Shown one piece after another: positions 161 through 17,390 of a stretch of 17,995 nt of DNA. The position numbers were made by a program, and so were the translations under genes. The notes below the pieces were generated by a model. The model did not search any database. It was given only the letters and a program-made list of their open reading frames with translations, and was not told the DNA's origin. Within the stretch, counting starts at the first letter, position 1. Every line of letters starts with the position of its first letter. Origin of the DNA: Escherichia coli (GTDB lineage: Bacteria; Pseudomonadota; Gammaproteobacteria; Enterobacterales; Enterobacteriaceae). The stretch lies in NCBI RefSeq assembly GCF_003334335.1, contig NZ_QOWQ01000057.1; one strand, written 5' to 3'.

Positions 161-3007
161 TCAGAAGGTCACATTCAGCGTGGCCTGACCGTTATAGCCT
201 TCAGCGCTGTTGCCGCTGACACTGTGGGCATAACCGGCCTGAACGCCCAGGGTGATATTTTCCCGGACACGGGCTTCCAGTCCGGCCTGCAGGTCCAGTG
301 ACGTGCCATTCCGGGACGGTGAGAACGTCATGTTACTGCCGGCTGCGGCTGTACCCATGCTCATGTCTCCCCGGGAGCTGAAGGTGCGGATAACAGAAGG
401 CTGTACCCACCAGTTCACAGGCAGTTCACTCACACCGTGTTTTGTACTGTCGCGCAGGGTGTCACGGGATGAGGTGCCTTCACCAAAGGTCATATCGTTG
501 TGGCTGCCCAGACGGAAACCGGCACGCACATGTTGTGTACTGCCATGCCCGAACTTCACATAACCGGCGTTATCCTGGCCGTCATCCAGGGAGAGCCCCT
601 GCCAGGTGTACTGCAGTTGTGGCTCCAGCATCAGGTTGTCAGTGATACTGAAGGGCAGACCGGTTTCCAGTGAGCCCAGCCAGCCCCAGCCCCGGGCGCG
701 GAAGTCGTTATTGTCCGATGACGCTTTCATGCTGTGGCGGGTTCCCTGTGCCACAATGTCAGCCCACAGGCCGGAGGACGTGTGTGTCAGATTCAGGTAT
801 CCGCCCAGGCTGCCGGCATCATCCCGGACCGTGCCGGCGCGGGAACCGTCATCATCCTTAACATCAACGGAAGAATGGCCTGCAGCACCATACACCCCTG
901 TCGTCAGAGACATACCGGCAACCTCTGTTCTCAGCAGGTCACCCTCCAGACGGACGAAGCCATAGCTGCCGCTGCTTTCCGGCGTGGCTCCACGGGCAAT
1001 ACCGCCGTTGTTATCGTGACCGAGATGACCGCCCTGAATGCTGAGACGGACGCTGTTATTTTCACCGTTTACACCGGTCTGATGGCTGCGGGAGCCTGCC
1101 AGAATCCGGTCATAGTCCATTGCCTGTGTCAGCATGGATGTATACAGGGGGACTTCAGCACGATAAGCATTTTCACTGCGCAGGTACCAGTCTTCATCGC
1201 TGTCACGGTTCAGGGTGTAGTTAAAGGCGCCGGCCTGAAGCGGGCGACTCAGGGCAAACGCACCTTCTTCTGTGGTGGCGCCATTCTGTGCATCCACAAC
1301 CCGGATACCCTGTCCGGAGGTTGCCACCCCGAGGTTACTGTTTCCGACATTTGTAAACGCAAGCCAGGTTTTGCCGGTTGCCTGACCACCATTAATCACC
1401 AGCTGGTCAGAGGTATTGCTGCCATCAAGGCGAACACGCATATTGATGGTGCCACCCTGACCGGTGAGGTTACTGGTTGTCAGTTTATGGAACGTTACCG
1501 GGGCGTTGCCTTTTGCAACAGCACGGCTCAGTACGGCGTCCGGTGTTGTCTGATTATCAAAGTAAATCTCCCCTGCGTTAACAATATCGCCGGTACTGAC
1601 CACATCACCATTCAGTACCATGCTGGCGCCTTTACTGAGCTGTGTTCTGCCACTCAGACTTCCCCCGGCAGCCAGCATCAGTGTTCCACGATGTCCGACA
1701 GTGGTGTTGCTGGCCTGTCCCCCGGCATTAACCGTAAAGCTGCCGCCATTTTCCAGCAGCAGGCCGCTGGCCTGACCGGATATGCCATCAATACTGAACT
1801 TACCGCTGGCATTGGTCCCCTCAACAGTGGCACCACTGTCTGCAATCAGGGCACCACCGGATGTCATGGTGACACCTGTTGCCTTACCACCGGCAGACAC
1901 TGCCAGGGTACCGCCGTCATCCACCAGTGTTTTCCAGGCTGAATGTCCCTCCAGTACATCCAGGCGACCACCGGACTCCAGAACAACACCGTCAGCCTTA
2001 CCGTTTTCCACCGCGAAATTGCCCAGACGGTTGCTGCCGGTGACGGTTGCCGCCGTACTGGTGACCAGTGCGCCTCCCTGCTTCAGGGTGACATTCGTGG
2101 CTATACCACCGGCGTTCACCTGCAGTTTGCCTTTCTGGTTAACGATGGTGAAATCCGCCAGACCACCTTCCTTGACAATCTGCCAGCCGTCACTGTTCAC
2201 AACAGTGTCAGAGGCTGTACCGCCGTTGTGCACATACTGGTTACCGCCGTTCAGTGTGGTATCCAGCGCGTAGCCATGTACAGTCTGGTCGCCGCCGGCA
2301 TAAACCACAGTGGTATTTGCTGTTCCTTCAGCAGCCACAATCTGACGACCATTTTCATTGATAGTGGTACGTACGGCATTTCCGCGAACAAACTGCCCGG
2401 TATCACCATTTTCTGCATCCGGTCCCCCTTCCGCGCCGGTATTCACAACCGTGTCGGTTGCCATTGCGCCGGATTTGACGGCCTGCCAGCCCTTCTCATT
2501 AATGACGGTACCCGTTGCAATCCCGCCTTCATGTACCCACTGCTCACCGCCGTTCAGAGTGGTGTTCACTGCCTGCCCCTGAAGGCTCTGTCCGCCTCCG
2601 GCACTGATAACCGTGTCTGAAACGCTTCCTCCGGCATTCACTCTCTGAAGACCACCACCGGTGACAGTAGTGTTGTTGGCGATACCGCCATTTTGTATCC
2701 ATTGCCCGCCGGTATTGGCCTCGTTATCCGGCCCATACTCCAGACCGGTACTGATGGTCATTCCGTTGGCCGTACCGAGAACAATCTGGTTGTCATGATT
2801 TGTCAGTGTTCCGCCGTTCACGGTTTCTCCCGCCTGTACAACCGTGTCAGCAGCCAGTGCCGGGACTGATGTGACAGCAGCAAGAGACAGCACAACCGCC
2901 ACACCGGCGCGTTTTCCCCGTGAGCGGGCCAGTTCGGAAGCCACCACCAGGGTGCCCGTAATGTGATTCCATACCAGCCTGTAGCTGGTGTTCAGATGTC
3001 GTTTCAT
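161..3007 (-). CDS. flu: Antigen 43 self-associating autotransporter adhesin (AIDA-I type), 948 aa
   Basis: ORF 161..3082 trimmed to the ATG at 3005-3007. The N-terminus MKRHLNTSYRLVWNHITGTLVVASELARSRGKRAG...VPALA/ADTVV is an extended autotransporter signal peptide. The passenger consists of roughly 19-aa G/T/N/V-rich beta-helix repeats (GGxQxVxxGGxAxxTxVNxxG type). The C-terminal beta-barrel ends ...GQATLNVTF with a terminal aromatic residue. The sequence is recognisably Ag43. Confidence 0.97.
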   Translation of the reverse strand: MKRHLNTSYRLVWNHITGTLVVASELARSRGKRAGVAVVLSLAAVTSVPALAADTVVQAGETVNGGTLTNHDNQIVLGTANGMTISTGLEYGPDNEANTGGQWIQNGGIANNTTVTGGGLQRVNAGGSVSDTVISAGGGQSLQGQAVNTTLNGGEQWVHEGGIATGTVINEKGWQAVKSGAMATDTVVNTGAEGGPDAENGDTGQFVRGNAVRTTINENGRQIVAAEGTANTTVVYAGGDQTVHGYALDTTLNGGNQYVHNGGTASDTVVNSDGWQIVKEGGLADFTIVNQKGKLQVNAGGIATNVTLKQGGALVTSTAATVTGSNRLGNFAVENGKADGVVLESGGRLDVLEGHSAWKTLVDDGGTLAVSAGGKATGVTMTSGGALIADSGATVEGTNASGKFSIDGISGQASGLLLENGGSFTVNAGGQASNTTVGHRGTLMLAAGGSLSGRTQLSKGASMVLNGDVVSTGDIVNAGEIYFDNQTTPDAVLSRAVAKGNAPVTFHKLTTSNLTGQGGTINMRVRLDGSNTSDQLVINGGQATGKTWLAFTNVGNSNLGVATSGQGIRVVDAQNGATTEEGAFALSRPLQAGAFNYTLNRDSDEDWYLRSENAYRAEVPLYTSMLTQAMDYDRILAGSRSHQTGVNGENNSVRLSIQGGHLGHDNNGGIARGATPESSGSYGFVRLEGDLLRTEVAGMSLTTGVYGAAGHSSVDVKDDDGSRAGTVRDDAGSLGGYLNLTHTSSGLWADIVAQGTRHSMKASSDNNDFRARGWGWLGSLETGLPFSITDNLMLEPQLQYTWQGLSLDDGQDNAGYVKFGHGSTQHVRAGFRLGSHNDMTFGEGTSSRDTLRDSTKHGVSELPVNWWVQPSVIRTFSSRGDMSMGTAAAGSNMTFSPSRNGTSLDLQAGLEARVRENITLGVQAGYAHSVSGNSAEGYNGQATLNVTF

Positions 3008-3220
3008 CAGCTTTTCCTTACAGAGGGTGAATAAAAAAGCCGGTACCCACAAATGTGGATACCGGCAGGTACAAAACAGCATGCTCAGATAAAGTGGTTT
3101 TTCCCGGACATAAATGCTTCCCCTCTCTCATCCGCCAGAGAAGTATCAGTCCGTTGTGTGCAATTCCGTTCTGCATGATGAAGAGATTCAGCTGCCTTTT
3201 CGCAGACCATTAACCACTAT

Positions 3221-3262
3221 AAACGATCGATAGTAACTATCGATACCTGTTTTATCGATCGT
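3221..3262 (-). promoter_or_regulatory. agn43 phase-variation switch: OxyR operator overlapping Dam GATC sites
   Basis: A perfect 9-1-9 palindrome atcgatagt-a-actatcgat lies at 3226-3244. On the sense strand it contains ATAGTTACTATCGAT, matching 9 of 10 fixed positions of the OxyR half-site consensus ATAGnTnnnAnCTAT. GATC sites lie at 3225-3228 and 3257-3260, each inside CGATCG. The site sits just downstream of the predicted promoter, as described for agn43. Confidence 0.75.
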
Positions 3263-3265
3263 TTT

Positions 3266-3294
3266 ATTCTATTAACAGTAGAGCAGTCACGCAA
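3266..3294 (-). promoter_or_regulatory. Sigma70 promoter of flu/agn43
   Basis: The sense strand reads TTGCGT (-35, plus-strand 3289-3294), a 17-nt spacer GACTGCTCTACTGTTAA, then TAGAAT (-10, plus-strand 3266-3271). This places +1 just upstream of the GATC/OxyR region and leaves an untranslated leader of about 250 nt before the ATG at 3007. Confidence 0.6.
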
Positions 3295-3379
3295 GAGAAA
3301 CAGGAGGGGCATGAGGTGTTTGTATCATGTTTTCAGTTGGTTAACGCAATGTAATCAGACATTTCCCCTGGCAGACTGT

Positions 3380-4252
3380 TCAGAAGAAAATCCAGTTCCA
3401 TACCGCGCGGGCAACAGAGACCACCGTGTCACGGACGGCACGCAGAACTGTGCGTGCAACAGAGGCAACACAGACGCTCTCCACCGTGTCAAATATCCGG
3501 TCCACCGCACCGGTAAACTGTTCACGGGCCTGCCCCCGGACAGATTCCGTGCACAGCTCGTCCTGCAGGCGGGTCATCAGGGGACTGGCGGCATGGTCGG
3601 GAAGCGCTGTCATGAGCGCACTGACCAGCGTATCCAGTTCCCAGCCGGTGCGGGCCGATACGGCAACAACCGGATGTACGGGCCGGAACAGCCGGAATAC
3701 CGCATCTGTTTTTTCGCGAATGTTCTGTTCCTGTGCGGGAGAAGGCTGAATACCTGCCATATCCCATTCATGGCAGGGCTCTGTTTTGTCGGCCTGCGTC
3801 ACCACAAACAGCACCTGCTGATGTCCCCGGTGCAGTATGTGTCGCCAGAAATACTCATCCACAGACAGGGCACGGTCATCGGCTTTAATCAGCCACAGTA
3901 CCAAGTCCAGTTCAGGCAGAATGTCACGGTACAGGGCTTCATACTCTGCATCCCTGTCCCGGCTCTCGCCCACCCCGGGCAGGTCAGTGATAACCATGCT
4001 GTGACCGTGGCCACTCAGACGGAAGCGCCGCACTTCCCGGGTGCCGGCGTGAACATCACTGACCGGGGTGACCTCCCCCTGAAACAGTGCATTACAGAGT
4101 GAGGATTTACCGGCCCCGCTTTTACCCATAATGCCAATCACGGGTTCGTGACTGGTGAGTTTGCGCAGATGTTCCAGGATGTGACGGGAAAGTGAGTAAG
4201 GCAGGGAGGAGAGCGGTTTTTCAATTGCCTCAATGGCATCAGACGGATTCAT
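3380..4252 (-). CDS. yeeP: YeeP/YkfA/YfjP-family P-loop GTPase (50S ribosome-binding GTPase fold), 290 aa, apparently intact
   Basis: The track ORF 3380..4291 begins at a GTG. I trimmed it to the ATG at 4250-4252 (MNPSDAIEAIEKPL...). It has Walker A GKSGAGKSSLCNALF, a G3-like DLPGVGE and a G4-like TQADK. It lies directly upstream of flu, as yeeP does in CP4-44. Confidence 0.9.
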   Translation of the reverse strand: MNPSDAIEAIEKPLSSLPYSLSRHILEHLRKLTSHEPVIGIMGKSGAGKSSLCNALFQGEVTPVSDVHAGTREVRRFRLSGHGHSMVITDLPGVGESRDRDAEYEALYRDILPELDLVLWLIKADDRALSVDEYFWRHILHRGHQQVLFVVTQADKTEPCHEWDMAGIQPSPAQEQNIREKTDAVFRLFRPVHPVVAVSARTGWELDTLVSALMTALPDHAASPLMTRLQDELCTESVRGQAREQFTGAVDRIFDTVESVCVASVARTVLRAVRDTVVSVARAVWNWIFF

Positions 4253-4405
4253 ACATGTATTCCCGGTGAAAAAAGACAAAACCCCGCGCACCGGAAAAGT
4301 GGCGGGGGACTCACGGAGATAATATCTGCCTAAAATTATTTGGAATGCAGGTATATGCAGCTAATTTGTATCGGCTCATTAGTACAGAACTAAACCTCAT
4401 CTGAC

Positions 4406-4431
4406 AGTCCGCTCTGTGCCAAGAGCGGACT
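4406..4431. terminator. Stem-loop downstream of the GIY-YIG gene (possible terminator)
   Basis: Perfect 10-bp inverted repeat agtccgctct (4406-4415) / agagcggact (4422-4431) with the 6-nt loop gtgcca, 37 nt beyond the stop of the 4468..5412 gene. TTTG follows on the plus strand only, and the minus-strand side has no U-run. Confidence 0.35.
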
Positions 4432-4467
4432 TTGCAAAATGGGGGTTATTTCAATCAAAACGTAACG

Positions 4468-5412
4468 TCACAACCAGCCGACGCTCTCTCGCCATTTATA
4501 ATTAGTAACTTTATCATTTTCGCTTATTTTTTTAGATATAGAGCGCGGCTCTCTTCCTAGATACTCAGATATTTCTATCGGGGACAAATCAAAATCGACA
4601 AGCATGACTCTAAGTTTTTCCATTTCCTTTAAAGTCCAAGGCTTGCCATAATTTTCATAAAGAGATACCTTATGCTCCCTGATAGTTCGCTTTCTCTGAG
4701 TTTCACTTTCCCTCTGAAAAATCTCGCTTTTAAATTGTGAACGGAACTCTTTACAGAAGTTGTTATCAGTTTTTTTGTTATATAGATTGCTAAAAATAAG
4801 CTGGGATGCCGGGTCTAAATCAGGTGTGTTAATAATGAAAACTTTGACCTTTTCCATATAGGGATATTCAATTTTACCCAATATGCTTAATTGCTTTATA
4901 TTAAAAAAACCTCTCAAATCAAAAGATTTAATGAGCTTTGATTGGATTACACTTTCAATCCTGCTTGCATTTGAATAACAGTACTTTGCCATTGGAAGGG
5001 CCCATACTACCAGTTGAGGAATATATTTTTCTAATGCAATGCTCTGCCAATCAGTATCAAAGGTTTGGCTTTTTGCTAGCATGTTTTTCGGCAAATCAGA
5101 ATACATTGTGGTAGATGCCCATATCTTATAATCATTCGCCAAGGCTTGATAGTATTTTGTGTGGTTATGAATTTTATAAGCTGACATGAAGCGATAAACG
5201 TCTTCGTCGTGACCAGCGTCGTAAATTGTTCGATTTCCTCTAAGATAACCGTCGTAATGTTCGGTTATCCTTCTACCTACATTACAACTTACCCCAACGT
5301 AAACCACACGACTGAAAAGTCCTTTATGGACAATAAGATAAACTCCGCTACAGCCAGATTTCCTGGCCTCTGATAGAGAACCTAAAAATCTCCATTCCAT
5401 AATTAAATCCAT
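4468..5412 (-). CDS. Orphan AT-rich gene: divergent GIY-YIG nuclease-like N-terminal domain plus C-terminal Myb/SANT-like HTH tail, 314 aa
   Basis: This is the only long ORF in a visibly AT-rich block. GIY-YIG-like motifs are SGVYLIV (GIY), VVYVGVS (YIG), GRRITEH (conserved Arg/Glu region) and a later RIESVIQ (candidate catalytic Glu). The C-terminal segment GKPWTLKEMEKLRVMLVDFDLSPIEISEYLGREPRSISKKI resembles a Myb/SANT or HTH repeat. The domain calls are by eye only. Confidence 0.75.
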   Translation of the reverse strand: MDLIMEWRFLGSLSEARKSGCSGVYLIVHKGLFSRVVYVGVSCNVGRRITEHYDGYLRGNRTIYDAGHDEDVYRFMSAYKIHNHTKYYQALANDYKIWASTTMYSDLPKNMLAKSQTFDTDWQSIALEKYIPQLVVWALPMAKYCYSNASRIESVIQSKLIKSFDLRGFFNIKQLSILGKIEYPYMEKVKVFIINTPDLDPASQLIFSNLYNKKTDNNFCKEFRSQFKSEIFQRESETQRKRTIREHKVSLYENYGKPWTLKEMEKLRVMLVDFDLSPIEISEYLGREPRSISKKISENDKVTNYKWRESVGWL

Positions 5413-5874
5413 AATTATTGCTACTGTTTTTGTTTATCATTATTTTCGTGAAACTTCAACAATTTTATCCAAAAGCTAAGGGCAAAGACTTATATAATTA
5501 TACTTGTCATCGTTAGCGATTATATAGAGTAGTGGCGCTGACCTGCTCCCTGGTGATTCACACAGAATGCTGTTAGTAATGTCCGTTCCTCGCTCAAAGC
5601 AGACCATTCGCTCAGTTAACGCATCAGTGTCGTGCTAAAAGTAGACGTGGTTAACAACAATGTGAGTTAATCAACGGAGAGCAGGTCAACTCTAACCTGT
5701 ATCAAAAAAACAAATGTGTCACAAAGATGCCGCATGCCTTAATTTGAGTATAATTGAGACGGAAGTAGACGGTTTATGGCTAAATATTGTTGATATATAG
5801 CTATTTGAAGAGTTGTAGCGCAAGTGTATAGCCCAAACTAATAACGCTACGCCCCTTACCTTTGACGCCTCTTA

Positions 5875-6129
5875 TCAAAGAGCGGCGATGATGCACAGCC
5901 CGCACGAGGCAATATTCGCACAAGAATCAGGTTCAGAAATAACCTGATCTGGCATGGTGGGGAGAGTATCACTGAGCAGGCTTTCGGTAAAATGCGGCGG
6001 GATGAGGTCGGCGTGGGTTGCAGCAGTACAATGTCGCCCGCAGAGGGTAAGCCACAGCGCGGGATCCTCGGTTTCTATCAGGGATTCGACGAAGTGGGCG
6101 CAGTTGTCGACCAAGGCGGTGAAATCCAT
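5875..6129 (-). CDS. Hypothetical protein (84 aa from MDFTALVDNCAHFVESL...), function unknown, possibly not a real gene
   Basis: ORF 5875..6183 trimmed to the ATG at 6127-6129. GC content looks similar to the hsd block. No convincing Shine-Dalgarno sequence is present, and a TATAAT lies immediately upstream on the sense strand. I recognised no motif. Confidence 0.3.
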   Translation of the reverse strand: MDFTALVDNCAHFVESLIETEDPALWLTLCGRHCTAATHADLIPPHFTESLLSDTLPTMPDQVISEPDSCANIASCGLCIIAAL

Positions 6130-6360
6130 AGTGACATTATAAGGAAACGAACAATAGATCGAGTAAATCGCAGTCAGGGACAAGGATTGTAGTCATAGAG
6201 AAGTCTCCTGTAACGGTTTTCAGGAAGCTAATCCCGACGCCTGATTTTGCAGGCGCGGAAGGAGAAGATACTGCGGCCATTAATCCGCCACAAGGCATTT
6301 ACGTGCATAAATCGCGCAGTCAAATCCGACTCCCACTGTAGTTCTTGAACCTGATACCAC

Positions 6361-6378
6361 ATTTAGCTAATTTAGCTA
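6361..6378. repeat. Tandem direct repeat ATTTAGCTA x2 (each with palindromic core TAGCTA), candidate operator
   Basis: The sequence atttagcta atttagcta occupies 6361-6378. It is followed by TATTAT (6386-6391, a -10-like hexamer) and the ATG of the small ORF at 6405. Confidence 0.6.
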
Positions 6379-6404
6379 ACTTATCTATTATACCAGTGGT
6401 TGCC

Positions 6405-6650
6405 ATGAATATGAATGAAGACGAGATTTATCGCCATATCCGGCAGGCACTTTCCAGTGCGCCTCGTAACCAGTACACCGTCGAGCTGCACCTGCAAATG
6501 ATTAAATATGCCGACAAACTGGAACACATTACGGCAAAAGCCTTTTGCGAAGGCACTGGTCTGAACCAGAGCCTCGGTACCGAATTCAGCAAAATGCGTA
6601 ACTTAACCCATCGGTTAAAGGCCGCCGGTCTGAATACCGATCTGCTGTAA
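6405..6650 (+). CDS. Small (81 aa) HTH-like protein at the head of the hsd operon; candidate regulator
   Basis: The track ORF starts at a TTG (6345). The first ATG is at 6405 (MNMNEDEIYRHIRQAL...). The segment ITAKAFCEGTGLNQSLGTEFSKMRNL looks like a helix-turn-helix. The gene is co-directional with hsdM and ends 39 nt before it. Confidence 0.55.
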   Translation: MNMNEDEIYRHIRQALSSAPRNQYTVELHLQMIKYADKLEHITAKAFCEGTGLNQSLGTEFSKMRNLTHRLKAAGLNTDLL

Positions 6651-6689: not shown

Positions 6690-9128
6690 ATGGCTATCAA
6701 AAAAACCGAACTCTATTCTTCCCTGTGGGCAAGCTGCGACGAACTGCGTGGCGGGATGGACGCCAGCCAGTACAAAGACTATGTACTGACCCTGCTGTTT
6801 ATGAAGTACGTTTCCGATAAGTATAAAGGCGATCCTTACGGGATGATCGTGATACCCAAAGGAGCCAGCTTTGACGATATGGTTGCGCTGAAAAATGACA
6901 AAGAGATCGGCGACAAAATCAACAAAATCATCCACAAGCTGGCGGAAGAGAACGGCCTGAAGGGCGTCATCGACGAAGCCGACTTTAACGACGAAGATAA
7001 GCTCGGCAAAGGCAAGGAAATGATTGACCGCCTGAGCAAGCTTGTCGGTATCTTTGAAGGGTTAAATCTCTCCAGCAACCGGGCCGAAGGCGACGATCTG
7101 CTGGGCGATGCCTATGAATATCTGATGCGTCACTTCGCAACCGAATCCGGTAAGAGTAAAGGGCAGTTTTACACTCCAGCGGAGGTGTCACGTATTCTGG
7201 CGAAGGTGATTGGTATTACTCCCGATACTCCGCAAGATGCAACGGTTTATGACCCAACCTGTGGCTCTGGTTCGCTGCTGTTGAAAGTGAATGATGAAGC
7301 CCGGCGCGGACTGTCGATTTTCGGCCAGGAGATGGATAACGCTACCAGTGCGCTGGCGCGGATGAACATGATTCTGCATAACAATGCCACCGCGAAAATC
7401 TGGCAGGGCAATACGCTGAGCGATCCGCAGTGGAAAGAGGCGAACGGCAAACTGAAAGCCTTCGATTTTGCCGTGGCGAACCCGCCTTTTTCCAATAAAA
7501 ACTGGACCAACGGGCTGACGCCGAAAAAAGATCCGTTTGAACGCTTCGGCTGGGGTATTCCGCCGGAAAAAAACGGCGATTATGCTTTTTTGTTGCATAT
7601 CATTAAAAGCCTGAAAAGTACCGGCAAAGGCGCGGTGATCCTGCCCCACGGCGTACTGTTTCGCGGTAACGCCGAAGCGAATATCCGTGAAAATCTAATC
7701 AAGCAGGGCTATATCAAAGGCGTTATTGGTTTGCCAGCCAACCTGTTTTACGGCACCGGCATCCCGGCGTGCATCATTGTGATTGATAAAGAGCACGCCC
7801 ACAGCCGCAAAGGCATTTTTATGATCGACGCCAGCCGGGGCTTTATCAAAGATGGCAACAAGAACCGCCTGCGTAGCCGAGATATTCACCGCATTGTGGA
7901 CGTGTTCAACCATCAGCGAACGGTACCTGGCTACAGCCGGATGGTGCCCTCCAGCGAGATCGCCGGAAATGATTACAACCTGAATATTCCTCGCTATATC
8001 GAGAGCGGCGAGCCGGAAGATTTACACGATCTGACCGCGCACTTACAGGGCGGTATTCCGGCACGCGATGTGGATGCTTTGCAAGATTACTGGCGGGTAT
8101 TCCCTGCCCTGCGCAACGTGCTGTTTGCTGACGACCGTCCCGGTTACTGTCGGGCGCAGGTGAACGCGCAACAGGTGAAACCGACCATTCTGGCGCATCA
8201 GGAGTTTAAGGATTTTGCCACCCGCAGCCTGCTACCGTTTAAAGCGTGGGTGAAAGAGGCAAGTCTGGAAGAGATTCGCAAAGGTGATAAACCCAAAGCG
8301 CTAATCCACGATATCAGCGAAATGCTATTGGCGCAGTACGCCAACAGTGAGTTGCTGAACAAATACAGCGTGTACCAGATCCTGATGGATTACTGGACTG
8401 ATGTCATGCAAGACGATGTGTATGCGATTATGCAGGATGGCTGGCAAGCCGCCGCGCAAATCCGCGAGCTTCAGCCGGTGAAAGGCAAAGATGGCAAAAA
8501 CATCTGGAAAGAAACGCACGATTTCGAGTTTACCAAACGGCGCTACAAGGCCGATGTGCTGCCCCGTTCGCTGGTGGAAATTCGCTGTTTCCCGGAACTG
8601 CTGGATGCGCTGAACCGCGCGCAGGAGCGCAGTGAAGAAGCCAGTCGTCAGCTAGTGGAATTCATCGAGGAGCAGGCAGGTGAAGAGGATCTGCTGGCCG
8701 AGGCGAAGAACGATAAAGATAAGGTGACGCAAAAGCTGGTGAATGCCCGTCTAGCACAGTTAAAGAAAACCACTGCCGGCCCAGATGAGCTGGCAGTGCT
8801 GAACCGCTGCCTGGCGCTAATTAAGGCCGAAGCCAGTGCGAAAAAAGCGCTGAAAGCCGCACAAGAAGCGCTGGATCGGGCGGTGTTTAAACATTATCCC
8901 ACGCTGGATGAAGCAGCGATTAAAACGCTGGTAGTGCAGGATAAGTGGCTGGCAACGTTGCAGGCAGGGATCAAGGCGGAGATTGAGCGTATTACCCAGC
9001 AACTGGCGTCGCGCGTAAAGGAGCTGGAAGAGCGTTATGCTGAACCGTTGCTAGCGCTTGAAGCCTCCGTTGAGGCGTTGAGCGAGAAAGTGGCCGAGCA
9101 TTTGCGGGCGATGGGGCTGGAGTGGTGA
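6690..9128 (+). CDS. hsdM: Type I restriction-modification methyltransferase subunit HsdM, unusually long (812 aa)
   Basis: The N-terminus is HsdM_N-like (ELYSSLWASCDELRGGMDASQYKDYVLTLLFMKYVSD). The AdoMet motif is VYDPTCGSGSLLL (about residues 186-198) and the catalytic motif is ANPPF (about residues 263-267). The core ends near NLNIPRYIE (about residue 438). Roughly 365 further residues are rich in predicted coiled coil. Confidence 0.97.
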   Translation: MAIKKTELYSSLWASCDELRGGMDASQYKDYVLTLLFMKYVSDKYKGDPYGMIVIPKGASFDDMVALKNDKEIGDKINKIIHKLAEENGLKGVIDEADFNDEDKLGKGKEMIDRLSKLVGIFEGLNLSSNRAEGDDLLGDAYEYLMRHFATESGKSKGQFYTPAEVSRILAKVIGITPDTPQDATVYDPTCGSGSLLLKVNDEARRGLSIFGQEMDNATSALARMNMILHNNATAKIWQGNTLSDPQWKEANGKLKAFDFAVANPPFSNKNWTNGLTPKKDPFERFGWGIPPEKNGDYAFLLHIIKSLKSTGKGAVILPHGVLFRGNAEANIRENLIKQGYIKGVIGLPANLFYGTGIPACIIVIDKEHAHSRKGIFMIDASRGFIKDGNKNRLRSRDIHRIVDVFNHQRTVPGYSRMVPSSEIAGNDYNLNIPRYIESGEPEDLHDLTAHLQGGIPARDVDALQDYWRVFPALRNVLFADDRPGYCRAQVNAQQVKPTILAHQEFKDFATRSLLPFKAWVKEASLEEIRKGDKPKALIHDISEMLLAQYANSELLNKYSVYQILMDYWTDVMQDDVYAIMQDGWQAAAQIRELQPVKGKDGKNIWKETHDFEFTKRRYKADVLPRSLVEIRCFPELLDALNRAQERSEEASRQLVEFIEEQAGEEDLLAEAKNDKDKVTQKLVNARLAQLKKTTAGPDELAVLNRCLALIKAEASAKKALKAAQEALDRAVFKHYPTLDEAAIKTLVVQDKWLATLQAGIKAEIERITQQLASRVKELEERYAEPLLALEASVEALSEKVAEHLRAMGLEW

Positions 9129-10462
9129 TGGTGGATTTAATGGTGAATGAGCAACGGTCGAGTACGGCGGGGAAAGATGTGCCTGCGGGGTATAAACTGA
9201 CTGAGGTGGGCGTGATTCCTGAGGATTGGGATTGCGTACCATTTGGTAATCTGTTTAAAACAAACACAAAGAAAAAAAAAGTCAGCGATTATGAGCTAGT
9301 TTCATTTATTGGGATGCAGGATGTTAGTGAAGATGCACAATTAAAAAATAATACTCAACTTCCTTTTAAAGAAGTTAAAAGTGGTTTTACTTACTTTGAA
9401 AAAGGGGATGTTTTATTAGCTAAAATAACCCCTTGTTTTGAAAATGGAAAAGGATGTCATACCGCTGATTTACCTACTAATGTAGGTTTTGGGAGTACGG
9501 AATTTCATGTATTAAGGGAAAATGAAGACTCCGATTCTCGCTTCATCTATTTTTGGACAACTGATAAAAAATTCAGAGCATCACTGGAATCTGAAATGGT
9601 GGGAAGTGCGGGACACCGTCGTGTGCCGCTAGTTGCTATAGAAAAATATTTGATTCCATGTCCCCCAAATTTGCAAGAGCAAAGTGCTATTGCTGATTCA
9701 TTATCTGATATTAATAATTTTATTCTAGCTCTAGAAAAGCTTATCGTTAAAAAACAAGCCATTAAAACCGCTACTATGCAGCGACTACTGACTGGTAAAA
9801 CCCGTTTGCCACAGTTTGCGTTGCGCAAAGATGGCTCTGCTAAGGGATATAAAAAGAGCGAGTTGGGGGAGATTCCTGAAGATTGGAATTGTATTAATCT
9901 TGGTGAGCTAGGTAATTGCATTATTGGGTTAACTTACAAACCTGAAGATACATCTGATTATGGTACATTGGTATTACGCTCATCCAACATTCAAAATAAT
10001 CACTTAGCTTATGATGATAACGTCTTCGTCAGCATAGAACCACCTGAACGCACAATTGTGAAAGAAGGTGATATCTTGGTATGTGTAAGAAATGGCAGTC
10101 GCCAACTTATTGGCAAATGCGCATTAATTGACAAAAATGCGCAGGGCTCAGCATTCGGTGCATTTATGTCAGTATTCCGAACTGATATATATGGATTTAC
10201 ATTTCACCAATTCCAGTCTGATATTATTCAAAAGCAAATCGCTGAAGTTATGGGTGCCACTATCAATCAGATAACTAACAAAGATATGTTGGGCTTTAAA
10301 ATCCCATTACCTGAAAATACAGAAGAACAAGCCGCCATCGCCGCCATCCTCTCCGATATGGACAAGGAAATCCAGATCCTGCAACAGCGTCTGGACAAAA
10401 CCCGCCAGCTTAAGCAAGGGATGATGCAGGAACTGTTAACCGGGAAAATCCGCTTAATATAG
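9128..10462 (+). CDS. hsdS: Type I R-M specificity subunit HsdS with two target-recognition domains
   Basis: The ATG at 9128 overlaps the hsdM TGA as TGATG. The track ORF starts at the GTG at 9122. TRD entry motifs are duplicated (GVIPEDWDCVPFGNL and GEIPEDWNCINLGEL). Conserved helical spacers are also duplicated (QSAIADSLSDINNFILALEKLIVKKQAIKTATMQRLLTGKTRLP and QAAIAAILSDMDKEIQILQQRLDKTRQLKQGMMQELLTGKIRLI). Confidence 0.95.
   Translation: MVDLMVNEQRSSTAGKDVPAGYKLTEVGVIPEDWDCVPFGNLFKTNTKKKKVSDYELVSFIGMQDVSEDAQLKNNTQLPFKEVKSGFTYFEKGDVLLAKITPCFENGKGCHTADLPTNVGFGSTEFHVLRENEDSDSRFIYFWTTDKKFRASLESEMVGSAGHRRVPLVAIEKYLIPCPPNLQEQSAIADSLSDINNFILALEKLIVKKQAIKTATMQRLLTGKTRLPQFALRKDGSAKGYKKSELGEIPEDWNCINLGELGNCIIGLTYKPEDTSDYGTLVLRSSNIQNNHLAYDDNVFVSIEPPERTIVKEGDILVCVRNGSRQLIGKCALIDKNAQGSAFGAFMSVFRTDIYGFTFHQFQSDIIQKQIAEVMGATINQITNKDMLGFKIPLPENTEEQAAIAAILSDMDKEIQILQQRLDKTRQLKQGMMQELLTGKIRLI
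9272..9280 (+). repeat. A9 homopolymer inside hsdS TRD1 (encodes part of TKKKKV)
   Basis: The read gaaaaaaaaag gives nine consecutive A residues at 9272-9280, inside the hsdS coding frame. Confidence 0.9.
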
Positions 10463-10474
10463 AAGGGAAAGCAC

Positions 10475-11131
10475 ATGGCTTATGATTACAGCGCCAGCCT
10501 CAACCCGCAAAAAGCTCTGATCTGGCGTATCGTCCATCGGGACAATATCCCGTGGATTCTGGATAACGGGCTGCACTGCGGCAACAGTCTGGTGCAGGCG
10601 GAAAACTGGATCAATATCGGCAACCCGGAGCTGATCGGCAAGCGTGCCGGGCATCCGGTACCTGTCGGAACGGGCGGGACACTGCATGACTATGTGCCGT
10701 TTTATTTTACCCCCTTCTCGCCAATGCTGATGAACATCCACAGCGGGCGCGGCGGCATTAAGCAACGCCCCAATGAGGAGATCGTTATTCTGGTCAGCAA
10801 CTTGCGAAACGTGGCAGCACACGACGTACCCTTCGTGTTTACCGACAGCCATGCTTACTATAACTGGACCAACTACTACACCAGTCTGGATAGTCTGGAC
10901 CAGATCGACTGGCCCATTTTGCAGGCACGGGACTTTCGCCGCGATCCAGACGATCCGGCTAAATTTGAACGCTATCAGGCAGAGGCGCTAATCTGGCAAC
11001 ACTGCCCGATCTCTCTGCTGGATGGGATAATTTGTTACAGCGAAGAGGTCAGGTTACAATTAGAACAATGGCTGTTTCAGCGTAATCTAACAATGTCCGT
11101 TCACACACGGGCTGGATGGTACTTCTCATGA
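10475..11131 (+). CDS. darT: DarT (DUF4433) ssDNA thymidine ADP-ribosyltransferase toxin, 218 aa
   Basis: Motifs typical of DUF4433/DarT are [17 protein letters not shown] near the N-terminus, [13 protein letters not shown], and the putative catalytic Glu in RYQAEALIW. The gene is followed by a macrodomain gene with an ATGA overlap. An AAGGGA Shine-Dalgarno sequence lies upstream, and the start is 12 nt after the hsdS stop. Confidence 0.9.
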
Positions 11132-12195
11132 TCACATATACACAAGGCAATTTACTGGACGCACCGGTGGAAGCTCTGGTGAATACGGTTAATACCGTCG
11201 GTGTCATGGGGAAAGGCATCGCGTTGATGTTTAAAGAGCGCTTCCCCGAAAATATGAAAGTCTATGCCCTCGCCTGCAAACAAAAGCAGGTGATCACCGG
11301 CAAAATGTTCATTACCGAAACCGGGGAACTGATGGGACCGCGCTGGATTGTTAATTTTCCGACCAAACAGCACTGGCGCGCTGATTCCCGCATGGAGTGG
11401 ATTGAAGATGGCTTGCAGGACTTACGCCGCTTTTTGATTGAAGAGAACGTGCAGTCCATCGCCATTCCACCACTGGGCGCAGGCAACGGTGGTTTGAACT
11501 GGCCGGACGTTCGGGCGCAGATTGAATCTGCCCTTGGCGACCTTCAGGACGTTGATATCCTGATTTACCAACCGACTGAAAAATACCAGAACGTTGCCAA
11601 AAGCACTGGCGTAAAAAAGCTCACTCCCGCCAGAGCCGCCATCGCTGAACTGGTGCGTCGCTACTGGGTATTGGGGATGGAGTGCAGCCTACTGGAAATC
11701 CAGAAACTGGCCTGGCTGTTACAACGCGCCATTGAGCAGCATCAACAGGACGATATCCTCAAACTGCGGTTTGAAGCTCACTATTATGGCCCCTATGCGC
11801 CCAATCTGAACCATCTGCTTAATGCGCTGGACGGCACCTATCTTAAAGCCGAGAAACGCATCCCGGACAGCCAACCGCTGGATGTGATCTGGTTTAACGA
11901 TCAGAAAAAAGAACACGTTAATGCGTATCTGAACAACGAAGCCAGAGAGTGGCTACCTGCGCTGGAGCAGGTCAGCCAGTTAATTGACGGCTTTGAATCG
12001 CCGTTTGGTCTGGAGTTGCTGGCAACCGTAGACTGGTTGCTGAGCCGTGGCGAATGTCAACCAACGCTGGATTCCGTTAAGGAAGGGCTGCACCAGTGGC
12101 CTGCGGGCGAACGCTGGGCCAGCCGTAAGTTGAGGCTGTTTGATAATAATAATCTGCAATTTGCCATTAACCGCGTAATGGAGTTCCATTGCTGA
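11128..12195 (+). CDS. darG: DarG antitoxin: N-terminal macrodomain (ADP-ribosyl-DNA glycohydrolase) plus C-terminal DarT-binding-type domain, 355 aa
   Basis: The start [40 protein letters not shown] is a canonical macrodomain beginning. NFPTKQHWR and [13 protein letters not shown] are also macrodomain-like. The ATG at 11128 overlaps the darT TGA (ATGA). The track ORF starts 12 nt earlier, at 11116. Confidence 0.92.
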
Positions 12196-12213
12196 GGGTT
12201 TAAGGAGCGCCTT

Positions 12214-15200
12214 TTGAGTACCGTGGGCCAGCGCGAACGCGCCACACAGCAGCGTCTGATTCAGTTTTTTGTTGAAGATTTAGGTTACCGCCATCTGAGT
12301 CACCGCACCGGGTACACCGGGAACAGCAACATCGACACTAATATACTGAGCGCGTGGCTAAAACGGCGCGGCGTTAATGATACGTTGATCACCCGGGCGT
12401 TGCGGCAACTGGATTCCGCCGCCGCTCTGGGCGAAGGCAAAAAACTCTATTACGCCAATAAAGAGGTCTATCGCCTGCTGCGTTACGGCGTGAAAGACAA
12501 AGAAGGCGCAGGCGAGCAGAACCAAACCGTGTGGCTGATTGACTGGGCCAACCCACAAGCCAATGATTTCGCCATCGCCGATGAGGTGACGGTCAAAGGC
12601 GAGTACTGCAAGCGCCCGGATCTGGTGCTGTACGTTAACGGCATTGCGCTGGGCGTGATTGAACTTAAGCGTTCGTCAGTGCACGTCAGCGAAGGCATCC
12701 GGCAGAATCTCGATAATCAAAAGAAAACCTTTATCCGCGATTTCTTCACCACTATGCAGTTAGTGATGGCGGGCAACGATACGCAGGGCCTGCGCTACGG
12801 CACCATCGAAACCCCGGAAAAATACTATCTGGAGTGGAAAGAAGATAATCCAGGCGACTATACACATAAACTCGACTTTCATTTAAGTCGTCTGTGTAGC
12901 AAATCCAGGCTGTTGGATATCGTCCATAATTACATTGCCTTTGATGTCGGGGTGAAAAAACTCTGCCGCCATAATCAGTTCTTCGGCGTCGAGGCGGCTA
13001 AACAACATATTGCCCGTCGTGAAGGCGGTATTATCTGGCACACACAGGGATCGGGTAAAAGCCTGACGATGGTCTGGCTGGCGAAGTGGATCCGTGAAAA
13101 TGTGCCAAACTCCCGCGTGTTGATTGTGACTGACCGCACCGAACTGGATGAACAGATCGAAAGCGTGTTTATGGGCGTGAATGAAGATATTTATCGCACC
13201 TCCAGCGGCAACGATCTTATCGCAACGCTCAATCATCCTAACCCGTGGCTCATTTGCTCGCTGGTGCATAAATTTGGTCGTCGCAGCGAAGCTGAAGACA
13301 ATGCGGCTACCGACGCCTTTATCACCGAATTACAGCAGTCCCTGACGAAAACATTCCGCGCCAAAGGCGATCTGTTTGTTTTTGTGGACGAGTGCCACCG
13401 CACACAATCCGGCAAGTTGCATAACGCCATGACTGCCATTCTGCCGGACGCCCTGTTTATCGGTTTTACCGGCACACCGCTGATGAAGAAAGATAAGAAG
13501 AAGTCGGTTGAGGTGTTCGGCCCTTATATCCATACCTATAAATTTGATGAAGCGGTGGCCGACGGTGTGGTGCTGGATCTGCGCTACGAGGCACGCGATA
13601 TTGACCAGTATCTGACATCAGAGAAAAAGGTCGATGACTGGTTTGAAGCCAAGACTCGCGGTTTGTCGAATTTAGCCAGGACCCAGCTTAAGCAAAAGTG
13701 GGGATCAATGCAGAAGCTGCTCTCCAGCAAGTCGCGGCTGGAGCAGATCGTTAACGACATTTTGCTGGATATGGATACCCGTCCACGCCTGATGGACGGG
13801 CGCGGCAACGCCATGCTGGTATGCAGCAGTATCTATCAAGCCTGCAAGGTTTACGAGATGTTCAGCCAGACCGAGCTGGCAGGAAAAGTAGCGATTGTGA
13901 CCAGCTATCGCCCCGATGCCGCCAGCATCAAAGGCGAAGAAACGGGCGAAGGGTTAACGGAGAAACTCTCTAAACACGCCACCTATCGTAAAATGTTGGC
14001 TGACTATTTTGAACAAAGTGAAGAGAAGGCCGCCGCACGCATTACCGAGTTCGAGCGGGAAGTGAAACAGCGTTTTATTGAAGAGCCGGGGCAAATGCGC
14101 CTGCTTATCGTGGTGGATAAGCTGCTGACTGGCTTTGACGCGCCGTCCGCCACCTATCTCTACATTGATAAAACCATGACCGACCATACGCTGTTTCAGG
14201 CGATTTGTCGGGTGAACCGGCTGGACGGTGAGGATAAAGAGTATGGCTATATTATCGATTATAAAGATCTGTTCCGTTCGCTGGATAAAGCGATTACCGA
14301 TTACACCACGGGCGCGTTTGATGATTACGATCGGGACGATGTGGCCGGGTTGCTGAAAGACAGGCTGGAGCAGGCGCAACTGGATCTCGACAGCGCGCTG
14401 GAGATGGTTCGCAGCTTATGTGAACCCGTCAAAACCCCGCGCAGCCTGCTGGACTATCAGCACTATTTTTGCGGTGAATCAGGAGAGAATCAGACTTCGT
14501 TAAACGAAAAAGAGGCGCTGCGCCTGACATTTTACCAGTGCGTCGCCCGTCTGCTACGCGCTTATGCCAGCATCGCCAATGAAATGCCGGAAGCAGGCTA
14601 CACTGCCGAAGAGGTAGAGAGCATTCGCGCCGAAGTCGCTGAATTCGAAAAACTGCGCTATGAGATTAAGCTGACCAGCGGCGATCTTCTGGATATGAAG
14701 CGCTTTGAACCCGCTATGCGTCATTTACTGGATATGTATGTTCGCGCCGATGGTAGCGAAGTGCTGATGGATTTTGAAGAGTTAAGTCTGATTGAACTGA
14801 TTGTCGAGAAAGGCTTGGCGGCGACCGTCGCCCTGCCGGATGATATCCGTAATAATCAGGATGCGATGGCGGAAACCATCGAAAACAACGTGCGCAAAAC
14901 CATCGTGGATGAAAACCCGGTTAACCCAAAATACTATGGACGCATGTCGCAGCTGCTGGATGAACTGATTACCCTTCGCCGACAAAATGCGCTCAATTAT
15001 CAGCAGTATCTGGAACGTATCCGCGATTTGTGTAAACAGGTCATCCGCCCGGAGCAAACCGCCGGAGCGTGCTACCCTGCCACCATGGATACACAAGCAA
15101 AGCGCGCCTTCTATGATAACTTCGGCCACGACGAGGTACTGGCGACCCGCATAGATACGACGATTCGCTATACCAAAAGGGCAGAGTGGATTGGCGATCG

Positions 15201-15309
15201 TTTTAAAGAACGGGAAATTGCCAACGCATTACGTGAAGAGACCGCCAGCTATAATATTGATATTGATGAGGTGATAGCGCTTGCCCGTCAGCAGAAGGAA
15301 TATCACTGA
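12214..15309 (+). CDS. hsdR: Type I R-M restriction/translocase subunit HsdR, 1031 aa, TTG start
   Basis: The N-terminal PD-(D/E)xK nuclease motif is RPDLVLYVNGIALGVIELKRS. SF2 helicase motif I is HTQGSGKSLTM and motif II is FVFVDECHRTQ. The following FIGFTGTPL and LTGFDAP/QAICRVNR motifs are present. The TTG at 12214 lies 6 nt after the strong Shine-Dalgarno sequence AAGGAG (12202-12207). Confidence 0.96.
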   Translation: MSTVGQRERATQQRLIQFFVEDLGYRHLSHRTGYTGNSNIDTNILSAWLKRRGVNDTLITRALRQLDSAAALGEGKKLYYANKEVYRLLRYGVKDKEGAGEQNQTVWLIDWANPQANDFAIADEVTVKGEYCKRPDLVLYVNGIALGVIELKRSSVHVSEGIRQNLDNQKKTFIRDFFTTMQLVMAGNDTQGLRYGTIETPEKYYLEWKEDNPGDYTHKLDFHLSRLCSKSRLLDIVHNYIAFDVGVKKLCRHNQFFGVEAAKQHIARREGGIIWHTQGSGKSLTMVWLAKWIRENVPNSRVLIVTDRTELDEQIESVFMGVNEDIYRTSSGNDLIATLNHPNPWLICSLVHKFGRRSEAEDNAATDAFITELQQSLTKTFRAKGDLFVFVDECHRTQSGKLHNAMTAILPDALFIGFTGTPLMKKDKKKSVEVFGPYIHTYKFDEAVADGVVLDLRYEARDIDQYLTSEKKVDDWFEAKTRGLSNLARTQLKQKWGSMQKLLSSKSRLEQIVNDILLDMDTRPRLMDGRGNAMLVCSSIYQACKVYEMFSQTELAGKVAIVTSYRPDAASIKGEETGEGLTEKLSKHATYRKMLADYFEQSEEKAAARITEFEREVKQRFIEEPGQMRLLIVVDKLLTGFDAPSATYLYIDKTMTDHTLFQAICRVNRLDGEDKEYGYIIDYKDLFRSLDKAITDYTTGAFDDYDRDDVAGLLKDRLEQAQLDLDSALEMVRSLCEPVKTPRSLLDYQHYFCGESGENQTSLNEKEALRLTFYQCVARLLRAYASIANEMPEAGYTAEEVESIRAEVAEFEKLRYEIKLTSGDLLDMKRFEPAMRHLLDMYVRADGSEVLMDFEELSLIELIVEKGLAATVALPDDIRNNQDAMAETIENNVRKTIVDENPVNPKYYGRMSQLLDELITLRRQNALNYQQYLERIRDLCKQVIRPEQTAGACYPATMDTQAKRAFYDNFGHDEVLATRIDTTIRYTKRAEWIGDRFKEREIANALREETASYNIDIDEVIALARQQKEYH

Positions 15310-16025
15310 TGCCAATCATGCAAATAGGCTCGTTACACTTGCTGGTCAACCGTAAGGCGATTAAGAATCTGCATATCAGCGTGCTGCCGCCTGATGGCAA
15401 AGTCCGCGTTTCAGCGCCGGAACATATGACGGAGACGGCGATTCGTATGGCGGTTGCTTCACGCTTTCGCTGGATCAGAAAACAGCAGCAGGATTTCGCC
15501 AGACAGCCTCGTCAATCAGAGAGGGAAATGGTCAGCGGAGAGTGCCACTATCTTTGGGGCCGAAGATATCGCCTACTTGTGATTGAGCGTCACGGGCGTC
15601 ACGAAGTAAAAGTTGCAGGAAATAATAAGCTCCAGCTTTATGTTCAACCGGGAACCCGTGATGAAAATAAGGCATTGGCGTTAAGTGAATTTTATCGACA
15701 TGAACTAAAACAGCAGGTGGCTAAGCTTCTACCTGAATGGCAGGACCGAATCGGTGTTCCCCTAACATTCTGGGGCATCAAAAAGATGAAAACCTTTTGG
15801 GGCACCTGTAACACTACAACAAAACGAATCTGGCTCAATCTGGAGCTAATTAAGAAGCCGCCGGAGTGTCTGGAGTATATTCTGGTGCATGAACTGGTTC
15901 ATCTTCTGGAACGTCACCATAATGCTCGCTTCCGGTTGCATATGGATCGGTTTATTCCTGACTGGCGTGAGCGTCGGGATTTGTTAAATAATATGCCGTT
16001 AGCGTTTGAGGCATGGGAGTATTGA
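15309..16025 (+). CDS. DUF45/YgjP-like (M48/WLM-like) HExxH zinc metallopeptidase, 238 aa, coupled to hsdR
   Basis: The zinc-binding motif is HELVHLLERHH near the C-terminus, preceded by WGTCNTTTKRIWLNLELIK, which is typical of DUF45. The ATG at 15309 shares one nucleotide with the hsdR TGA (TGATG). AAGGA lies 9 nt upstream. Confidence 0.9.
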   Translation: MPIMQIGSLHLLVNRKAIKNLHISVLPPDGKVRVSAPEHMTETAIRMAVASRFRWIRKQQQDFARQPRQSEREMVSGECHYLWGRRYRLLVIERHGRHEVKVAGNNKLQLYVQPGTRDENKALALSEFYRHELKQQVAKLLPEWQDRIGVPLTFWGIKKMKTFWGTCNTTTKRIWLNLELIKKPPECLEYILVHELVHLLERHHNARFRLHMDRFIPDWRERRDLLNNMPLAFEAWEY

Positions 16026-16523: not shown

Positions 16524-16608
16524 GTAAGCGTAAAGCCAATGCCGTCTGTAACACCTGCTCCTTGCAGACTAAATTAGAGCTCCTTCTAAATTAGACGGAG
16601 TTCTATTG

Positions 16609-17043
16609 ATGGATAAACCTACAGACTGGCGCTCCGGAACCCGCCGGATATTTTCTAATGAATTTAAACTTCATATGGTTGAACTGGCTTCGAAACCAAA
16701 TGCCAATGTTGCACAACTGGCCCGGGAACATGGCGTTGATAACAACCTGATTTTTAAATGGCTACGCCTCTGGCAAAGAGAAGGACGTATTTCTCGCAGA
16801 ATGCCTCCAACTATTGTAGGCCCTACAGTATCACAATCTTTTCCGGCCTCTCCGACTCTGGTTCCAGTGGAACTTATCGACACCCCGCGCTGTGCTACAG
16901 ATGCTCCTGCTCCGGAGGCATTATCAGTTGCTTGTGCAGCTTCCTGCCATGTGGAATTCCATTACGGTAAAATGATGCTGGAAAATCCTTCACCAGAGCT
17001 GCTCACGGTGTTGATCCGTGAGCTGACCGGGAGGGGACGATGA
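16609..17043 (+). CDS. tnpA: IS66-family accessory protein TnpA (HTH, transposase_8-like)
   Basis: MDKPTDWRSGTRRIFSNEFKLHMVELASKPNANVAQLAREHGVDNNLIFKWLRLWQREG is the IS66 orf1 type. The ATG at 16609 lies 8 nt after GGAG. The track ORF starts at the TTG at 16606. Confidence 0.9.
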   Translation: MDKPTDWRSGTRRIFSNEFKLHMVELASKPNANVAQLAREHGVDNNLIFKWLRLWQREGRISRRMPPTIVGPTVSQSFPASPTLVPVELIDTPRCATDAPAPEALSVACAASCHVEFHYGKMMLENPSPELLTVLIRELTGRGR

Positions 17044-17390
17044 TTTCACTCCCATCAGGTACCCGTATCTGGCTCGTTGCCGGCGTTACTGATATGCGTA
17101 AATCCTTCAACGGTCTGGGGGAGCAAATACAGCATGTGCTGGATGATAACCCCTTCTCCGGTCACCTGTTTATCTTCCGTGGCCGACGGGGAGACACGAT
17201 TAAAATCCTGTGGGCTGATGCTGATGGTCTGTGCCTGTTCACCAAACGCCTTGAGGAAGGTCAGTTTATCTGGCCTGCGGTGCGTGACGGTAAGATATCC
17301 ATTACCCGCTCGCAACTGGCAATGCTCCTCGATAAGCTGGACTGGCGTCAGCCAAAAACATCCCGCCTTAACGCACTGACAATGTTGTAA
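17040..17390 (+). CDS. tnpB: IS66-family TnpB (IS66 Orf2)
   Basis: MISLPSGTRIWLVAGVTDMRKSFNGLGEQIQHVLDDNPFSGHLFIFRGRRGDTIKILWADADGLCLFTKRLEEGQFIWP is a near-textbook IS66 Orf2. It overlaps tnpA by ATGA. Confidence 0.95.
   Translation: MISLPSGTRIWLVAGVTDMRKSFNGLGEQIQHVLDDNPFSGHLFIFRGRRGDTIKILWADADGLCLFTKRLEEGQFIWPAVRDGKISITRSQLAMLLDKLDWRQPKTSRLNALTML

Follow-up and report, generated by a model that had tools for sequence, protein, structure and literature searches.

A DarTG2 toxin–antitoxin pair in a type I restriction island of Escherichia coli and the probable route of its expression

How is a toxin–antitoxin pair expressed when the toxin gene comes first and neither gene appears to have a promoter of its own? 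The question is raised by darT and darG of Escherichia coli, which lie at positions 10475–12195 of the stretch of DNA analysed here (the window; 17,995 nucleotides (nt) of contig NZ_QOWQ01000057.1, assembly GCF_003334335.1). A first-pass annotation had described them as an intact DarT–DarG pair, toxin first, whose dosage is set by transcription of the surrounding hsd operon and by translational coupling. The pair is indeed intact; it sits between hsdS and hsdR, the genes for the specificity and restriction subunits of a type I system, and there is no intergenic room for a promoter. The reading favoured here, with a probability of roughly 0.8, is that it is the published E. coli DarTG2 cassette of the RRDM island (RptR-HsdMS-DarTG2-HsdR-M48), expressed from one transcript that would start at rptR, with translation of darG restarting at the ATGA where the two genes overlap. 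Both the darTG pair and the island are already known and are not new.

Identity of the pair

Searches with DarT and macrodomain family profiles, by which the first-pass annotation had proposed that the pair be checked, return both families. DarT scores 181 bits against Pfam PF14487 (E 3e-53; cut-off 22.5 bits), 262.6 bits against the NCBIfam equivalog NF048013 (cut-off 150 bits) and 247.8 bits in PADLOC. Its matches in the PDB include the DarT of Thermus, 7OMV (E 1.6e-26), and that of Mycobacterium tuberculosis, 7YK3, while the structure of E. coli C7 DarT1 (8BAQ) gives no match at E ≤ 0.001. The three motifs that had been called intact are all located, HRDN at residues 21–24, YVPFYF at 73–78 and QAEALI at 168–173; H21, G49, Y73–F78 and E170 (within QAEALI) are present and are invariant in a 20-sequence alignment. 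The protein is identical at 215 of 218 residues to the copy in an O127:H6 genome, the serotype of enteropathogenic E. coli (EPEC), and the three substitutions (Q97R, D139N and A213S) all fall on non-catalytic residues. The EPEC toxin attaches ADP-ribose to thymidine within TTT/TCT motifs of single-stranded DNA and brings replication to a stall; E170A is the alanine substitution tested in that protein, and its G49D variant keeps reduced activity (Lawaree et al. 2020, PMC7003065).

DarG scores 76 bits against Pfam Macro, 451 bits against the NCBIfam equivalog NF048014 (positions 1–337 of 338; cut-off 250 bits) and 424 bits in PADLOC. The macrodomain of Thermus aquaticus DarG (5M31) aligns to residues 1–152 (E 4e-55), and chain B of 7YK3, the C-terminal domain of M. 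tuberculosis DarG, aligns to residues 183–351 (E 5e-13). The catalytic lysine, K80, is present within NFPTKQHWR, in keeping with the earlier statement that the macrodomain motifs are intact; the K54A of Lawaree et al. corresponds to K80 in the numbering of the 355-residue protein, the older EPEC annotation having begun at M27. The exact sequence bears the UniProt name DARG_ECO27 and is identical to the O127:H6 copy. EPEC DarG neutralises DarT in two ways, enzymatically through the macrodomain and by sequestration through the C-terminal domain (PMC7003065). An in-frame ATG at 11116, which would give a protein of 359 residues, was considered as an alternative start and rejected, since orthologues in other genera are 355 residues long and both 5M31 and RefSeq favour 11128.

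The subtype of a DarTG system is marked by its antitoxin, which carries NADAR in DarTG1 and a macrodomain in DarTG2 (PMC11543638). No NADAR family was returned for the antitoxin by Pfam, NCBIfam or PADLOC, which gave macrodomain and DarG families and a sub-threshold match to SocA_Panacea only. Because the antitoxin is a macrodomain protein with K80, and because the toxin matches the thymidine-type DarT of Thermus and M. tuberculosis and not C7 DarT1, the system is assigned from its sequence to DarTG2, the thymidine-specific type. The near-identity of the toxin to EPEC DarT makes TTT/TCT in single-stranded DNA its expected target. The view that neither subtype nor target could be read from the sequence was therefore too cautious on both counts.

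The island and its promoter

The pair belongs to a run of seven tightly packed genes on the plus strand, rptR-hsdM-hsdS-darT-darG-hsdR-M48, with successive intergenic gaps of 39, −1, 12, −4, 18 and −1 nt. Half of the six junctions are stop/start overlaps (hsdM/hsdS TGATG, darT/darG ATGA, hsdR/M48 TGATG). The genes and signals of the island are as follows.

6345–6373, plus strand: island promoter, with −35 TTGAAC (6345–6350) and −10 AGCTAATTT (6365–6373)
6364–6369 and 6373–6378, plus strand: two adjacent RptR operator palindromes, TAGCTA, overlapping the −10 element
6411–6650, plus strand: rptR, 79-residue autorepressor of the island, labelled HTH-like protein in RefSeq
6690–9128, plus strand: hsdM, 812 residues, type I methyltransferase subunit (Pfam N6_Mtase 348 bits and HsdM_N; PADLOC MTase_I, full length)
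9128–10462, plus strand: hsdS, 444 residues, specificity subunit (Pfam Methylase_S, PADLOC Specificity_I); its start overlaps the hsdM stop (TGATG)
10463–10468, plus strand: AAGGGA, Shine–Dalgarno sequence of darT, 6 nt before the ATG; duplex with the anti-Shine–Dalgarno sequence −5.3 kcal/mol
10475–11131, plus strand: darT, 218 residues, DarT2-type toxin, a predicted ADP-ribosyltransferase of thymidine in single-stranded DNA
11032–11060, plus strand: unverified promoter-like match TTGTTA-17-TACAAT inside darT, about 68 nt upstream of darG; 9 of 12 positions match
11128–11131, plus strand: ATGA, overlap of the darG start (ATG, 11128–11130) and the darT stop (TGA, 11129–11131)
11128–12195, plus strand: darG, 355 residues, antitoxin with an N-terminal macrodomain (ADP-ribosyl glycohydrolase, K80) and a C-terminal DarT-binding domain
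12214–15309, plus strand: hsdR, 1031 residues, restriction subunit; TTG start, 18 nt past the darG stop
15309–16025, plus strand: M48/YgjP-like metallopeptidase gene (Pfam YgjP-like 208 bits); its start overlaps the hsdR stop (TGATG)

An island with all seven genes, ordered and closely joined as in the window, is known from EPEC E2348/69; it was named RRDM by Zhang et al. (Nucleic Acids Research, 2025; PMC12255303) and protects E. coli against several phages. Relative to the O127:H6 genome (locus L002), there are no amino-acid differences in DarG or M48, three in DarT, four in HsdR, three in RptR and 19 in HsdM. The −35 and −10 elements and the TAGCTA operators are also the same. The EPEC island differs in having a spacer of 11 nt between hsdS and darT where the window has 12 nt, and in the number of 9-base-pair TTAGCTAA repeats in the promoter, of which the O127:H6 copy has three and the window two (6360–6382). 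A degenerate TTATCTATT directly follows the two repeats of the window.

In EPEC the promoter upstream of rptR is active and is repressed by RptR, which binds the TAGCTA repeats; TAGCTA is the minimal binding site, and repression requires two such sites and no more (PMC12255303). The −35/−10 sequence of the window is that of the elements functional in the EPEC green fluorescent protein reporters of the same study. An RRDM island is recognised in part by an rptR gene in first place behind a promoter that carries two or more TAGCTA operators, and the window shows this arrangement. The encoded RptR is identical at 76 of 79 residues to the EPEC protein of crystal structure PDB 9R2Z, the differences being N2D, N52S and H67R (H67 in the window, R67 in EPEC). 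Residue 67 belongs to alpha-4, the C-terminal helix that recognises DNA, which the RptR paper terms extremely conserved. The operon thus has an autoregulated promoter, whose repressor is RptR and not DarG, and on this point the first-pass annotation, which had held that dosage is not set by such a promoter, does not stand; the rptR promoter was missed because it lies 4 kb upstream. No TAGCTA operator was found near darT. In the published island, infection raises hsdM mRNA more than 15-fold, and cells that carry the island become sensitive to Trib phage again when RptR is expressed constantly, a result that the authors interpret as silencing of its anti-phage activity (PMC12255303).

Transcription and translation of darT and darG

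The stop codon of hsdS (TAG, 10460–10462) is followed by a gap of 12 nt, which begins with the modest AAGGGA and ends at the darT ATG at 10475, just as had been described. Such a gap is too short for a promoter, and the remaining junctions are equally tight. AAGGGA and its spacer are invariant in six of six two-gene loci from five genera (E. coli, Edwardsiella, Klebsiella, Xenorhabdus and Pectobacterium). The embedding of the darG ATG in the darT stop is likewise borne out, with RefSeq placing the start at 11128. Given these gaps and the comparison set out below, one long transcript from the rptR promoter would carry darTG in its middle, without a promoter of its own. DarT would be translated from its own modest, conserved Shine–Dalgarno sequence, the hsdS stop being near enough for re-initiation too, while darG would be translated at least partly by ribosomes that end on darT and restart at the ATGA. 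A restart of this kind would tie antitoxin synthesis to toxin synthesis. The two proteins would then rise jointly on derepression, in which case the release of DarT during infection would be post-translational. Since the spacer also happens to be open in frame (TAG AAG GGA AAG CAC ATG, 10460–10477), a read-through fusion of HsdS to DarT was considered; it was rejected, as the EPEC spacer is 11 nt long, and the shared frame is probably coincidental.

The comparison covered 80 species-representative loci, with DarT 63–89% identical, on which DarT, DarG, HsdM, HsdS, HsdR, M48 and RptR were mapped. All 80 have darT directly before darG on one strand. Stop and start codons overlap at the darT–darG junction in 75 of them (ATGA in 40, TAATG or TGATG in 35), and a 16-nt spacer separates the two genes in the other five. 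Among the 15 two-gene loci flanked by hsdM or hsdS and by hsdR, the gap between hsdS and darT is −11 to +12 nt in 13 (+12 in four, −8 in six, −11 in two and +2 in one); the two exceptions are a gap of 314 nt and a locus without a detected hsdS. Cassettes that stand alone, without an abutting gene before darT, mostly have 66–1065 nt or a divergent neighbour upstream, as far as crude open reading frame calls can tell. At the nucleotide level, CATGAT at the darT–darG junction is the second-longest invariant run in the 1.7-kb cassette among 14 Enterobacterales orthologues. Judged by sequence comparison, the overlap of toxin stop and antitoxin start is a trait of this DarTG2 clade, and loci of the embedded class share the promoterless insertion. 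The gene layout of the window is real but ordinary for the DarTG2 family. Translational coupling was not found treated together with DarT and DarG in the searchable literature, and the M. tuberculosis DarG paper contains nothing on operon structure.

Several observations weigh against a single transcript with a restart at the ATGA. The start region of darG is unstructured (z = 0.81), and a Shine–Dalgarno-like element, GGATGG, which codes for a conserved Gly-Trp, lies 9 nt upstream (anti-Shine–Dalgarno duplex −6.8 kcal/mol). Independent initiation on darG is possible for these reasons, so that coupling need not be obligatory and independent starts probably also contribute. No RNA structure that would enforce coupling by occluding the starts of darT, darG or hsdR was found (z-scores 0.27–0.81). 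In five related loci the overlap has given way to the 16-nt spacer, which contains GAGGA (GAAGA in one), and this indicates that stop/start coupling is dispensable. Transcript quantification in the published island work is of hsdM mRNA only (PMC12255303). Finally, weak promoter-like hexamers occur at the 3′ end of hsdS (10275–10302) and in darT (11032–11060).

These hexamers bear on an alternative in which an internal promoter within coding sequence, at the 3′ end of hsdS or of darT, partly drives darTG or darG alone. The rptR promoter would then control dosage only in part, and surplus antitoxin could be made without toxin. Reverse-order toxin–antitoxin systems often need a means of making excess antitoxin, which speaks for such a promoter. 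Plus-strand promoter-like matches occur in hsdS at 10110, 10196 and 10275, and the match at 11032–11060 is retained in 12 of the 14 Enterobacterales orthologues, although it is lost in more distant ones. However, promoter-like matches inside the island number 13 against 12.8 expected in shuffled sequence (terminator-like matches, 16 against 12.2), and the conservation of the 11032–11060 element, at rank 240 of 1709 windows, does not stand out given an overall nucleotide identity of 73–88%. With matches at chance frequency and the best candidate no conservation outlier, a conserved internal promoter was rejected. Tight or overlapping hsdS–darT junctions are conserved across gamma- and betaproteobacteria, there is no operator near darT, and DarG is catalytic, so that an excess of it is perhaps not needed. 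An internal promoter of any kind is for these reasons considered unlikely, and transcription of the pair from the rptR promoter remains the preferred explanation.

The restriction enzyme and related loci

The DarTG2 systems of Thermus aquaticus, Thermus sp. and M. tuberculosis (7OMV, 5M31, 7YK3) share with the window pair the DarT fold and catalytic Glu, the macrodomain antitoxin with K80 and a C-terminal DarT-binding domain, and the order darT–darG. The T. aquaticus toxin is distant, with 29.5% identity to EPEC DarT reported, and the target is TNTC in the Thermus and M. tuberculosis systems but TTT/TCT in the EPEC type (PMC7003065). Nor have descriptions of those systems placed them within a type I restriction operon. 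DarTG1 (E. coli C7, 8BAQ) has a toxin of the same Pfam family, which is also an ADP-ribosyltransferase acting on single-stranded DNA and is likewise a phage defence; it differs in its NADAR antitoxin, where the window has a macrodomain, and in its guanosine target.

A toxic effector in the same setting is found in EcoprrI. The gene prrC lies between hsdS and hsdR, as darTG does here. PrrC, too, is embedded in a type I operon with no evident promoter of its own (Payne et al., preprint). It is the classic example of an abortive-infection module lodged in a restriction operon. PrrC is, however, a single protein that the restriction complex itself keeps inactive and that the T4 Stp peptide activates, whereas DarT has its own dedicated antitoxin and no known tie to the Hsd subunits.

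By analogy with PrrC, the embedding of darTG could be functional, with DarTG2 as a back-up triggered once the surrounding type I enzyme has been disabled by anti-restriction proteins of a phage; co-translation would then set its stoichiometry with the Hsd subunits. Besides the shared position, the distribution of the cassette fits this idea. In 25 of the 80 loci hsdR lies directly downstream of darG, with M48 after hsdR in 22 of the 22 that extend far enough, and in six more darTG is placed after hsdR or M48, mostly without intergenic space. The Ocr protein of T7 inhibits type I enzymes. Protection by the EPEC island is 1000-fold against T7 (PMC12255303). On the other hand, about half of the related loci have no adjacent type I system, and the linkage could merely reflect co-transfer. 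According to the account of LeRoux 2022 given in PMC10760071, two DarTG systems of E. coli are also protective outside the genetic elements that carry them natively, and no report of an interaction of DarT or DarG with Hsd proteins was found in the DarTG literature examined. A back-up function of this kind is accordingly rated as distinctly unlikely, and the guard role that it implies, in which DarT would be released when anti-restriction proteins disable the type I complex, is equally doubtful.

It is highly improbable that the pair has decayed or been silenced and no longer serves as a toxin–antitoxin or defence module in this strain. In favour of such a remnant are the three DarT substitutions relative to EPEC and the one operator repeat that the promoter lacks. 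Against it, every open reading frame runs its full length, the invariant DarT columns, G49 and E170 among them, are all preserved, DarG matches the characterised protein exactly, 238 genome records carry the locus at 99% identity or more, and two operators are enough for repression. As the first-pass annotation had supposed, and as the near-identity of both proteins to copies from the serotype of the characterised EPEC strain suggests, the pair is very probably active rather than decayed.

Within E. coli, 249 of 5426 complete genomes have the same cassette between hsdS and hsdR. A search for genomes with this restriction system but no darTG, made with 200 nt from the hsdS end joined to the 18-nt spacer and 200 nt from the hsdR start, found a contiguous junction in none of the 5426, and the darTG insertion can therefore neither be dated nor have its ends defined within the species. 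The island is flanked on one side (161–5412, minus strand) by an Ag43/Cah autotransporter gene (161–3082), beside which lie a GTPase-family gene with weak similarity to LeoA/LeoBC (3380–4291, minus strand) and a gene for a 314-residue protein with no Pfam or PADLOC match (4468–5412, minus strand). The other flank (16606–17390) holds an IS600 transposase remnant, according to the annotation of the identical locus L001. These flanking genes are consistent with a mobile genomic island.

The restriction genes show features of their own. The hsdS allele of the window encodes 444 residues and that of EPEC 453, of which 169 are identical in a global alignment. Over both target-recognition domains (9128–10320) the window allele bears no relation to that of EPEC, and nucleotide homology resumes only at 10321, in a conserved 3′ end; the G+C content of hsdS is 39%, as against 52–53% in the neighbouring genes. 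These features imply that the restriction specificity differs and that the recognition domains have been swapped by recombination. In HsdM the methyltransferase domains reach to about residue 445, and the remaining C-terminal stretch of about 370 residues has no Pfam domain; a full-length PADLOC model exists for this long class of HsdM (812 residues here). At the darG–hsdR junction (12196–12216), the TTG start of hsdR stands behind the strongest Shine–Dalgarno sequence of the island, AAGGAG (anti-Shine–Dalgarno duplex −8.4 kcal/mol).

The related loci also include other arrangements of the cassette. In 24 of the 80, a second DarT paralogue, divergent and about 190 residues long, abuts darT on its upstream side, with a gap of −29 to +4 nt. 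An example is L012:5423–5998 of Enterobacter sp. MGH 24; others are carried by L013, L016, L020, L023, L026, L028, L029, L040, L044, L054, L066, L070, L073, L078, L081, L084 and L087, among others. The paralogue scores 70–98 bits against Pfam DarT and 114–137 bits against PADLOC DarT, is about 20–25% identical to DarT2, and retains the motifs VPFH and cMAECLs (with the catalytic Glu). Its best PDB match is the fused DarT–macro protein 7OMU (E 1e-8) rather than DarT1 or the DarT of Thermus, and the window lacks the paralogue. The searchable literature yielded no mention of tandem DarT genes, and the tandem DarT–darT–darG form is apparently undescribed.

Two cassettes that appear to stand alone, in Phytobacter and Rosenbergiella (L013:5273–5425 and L016:5273–5425), have a degenerate hsdS 3′ end and the Shine–Dalgarno spacer upstream, which suggests that they derive from embedded copies after loss of the restriction genes. 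In L063 a gene for an AbiEi-type transcriptional regulator (5318–5986; PADLOC AbiEi 243 bits) overlaps the darT start by 4 nt and would be a different dedicated regulator in place of RptR. A gene of similar size occupies the same position in L036 (5360–5977), also with a 4-nt overlap with darT; the family call was made for L063 only.

Taken as a whole, the locus is a near-copy of a system with published biochemistry (2020), subtype (2022–2023) and island-level regulation (2025), and the window itself adds little that is new. As the overlap and the promoterless insertion appear to be family traits, they would be better tested in the EPEC model than in this strain. Should the guard role prove true, it would explain the promoterless placement of darTG beside hsdR in dozens of species, beyond what co-transfer accounts for.

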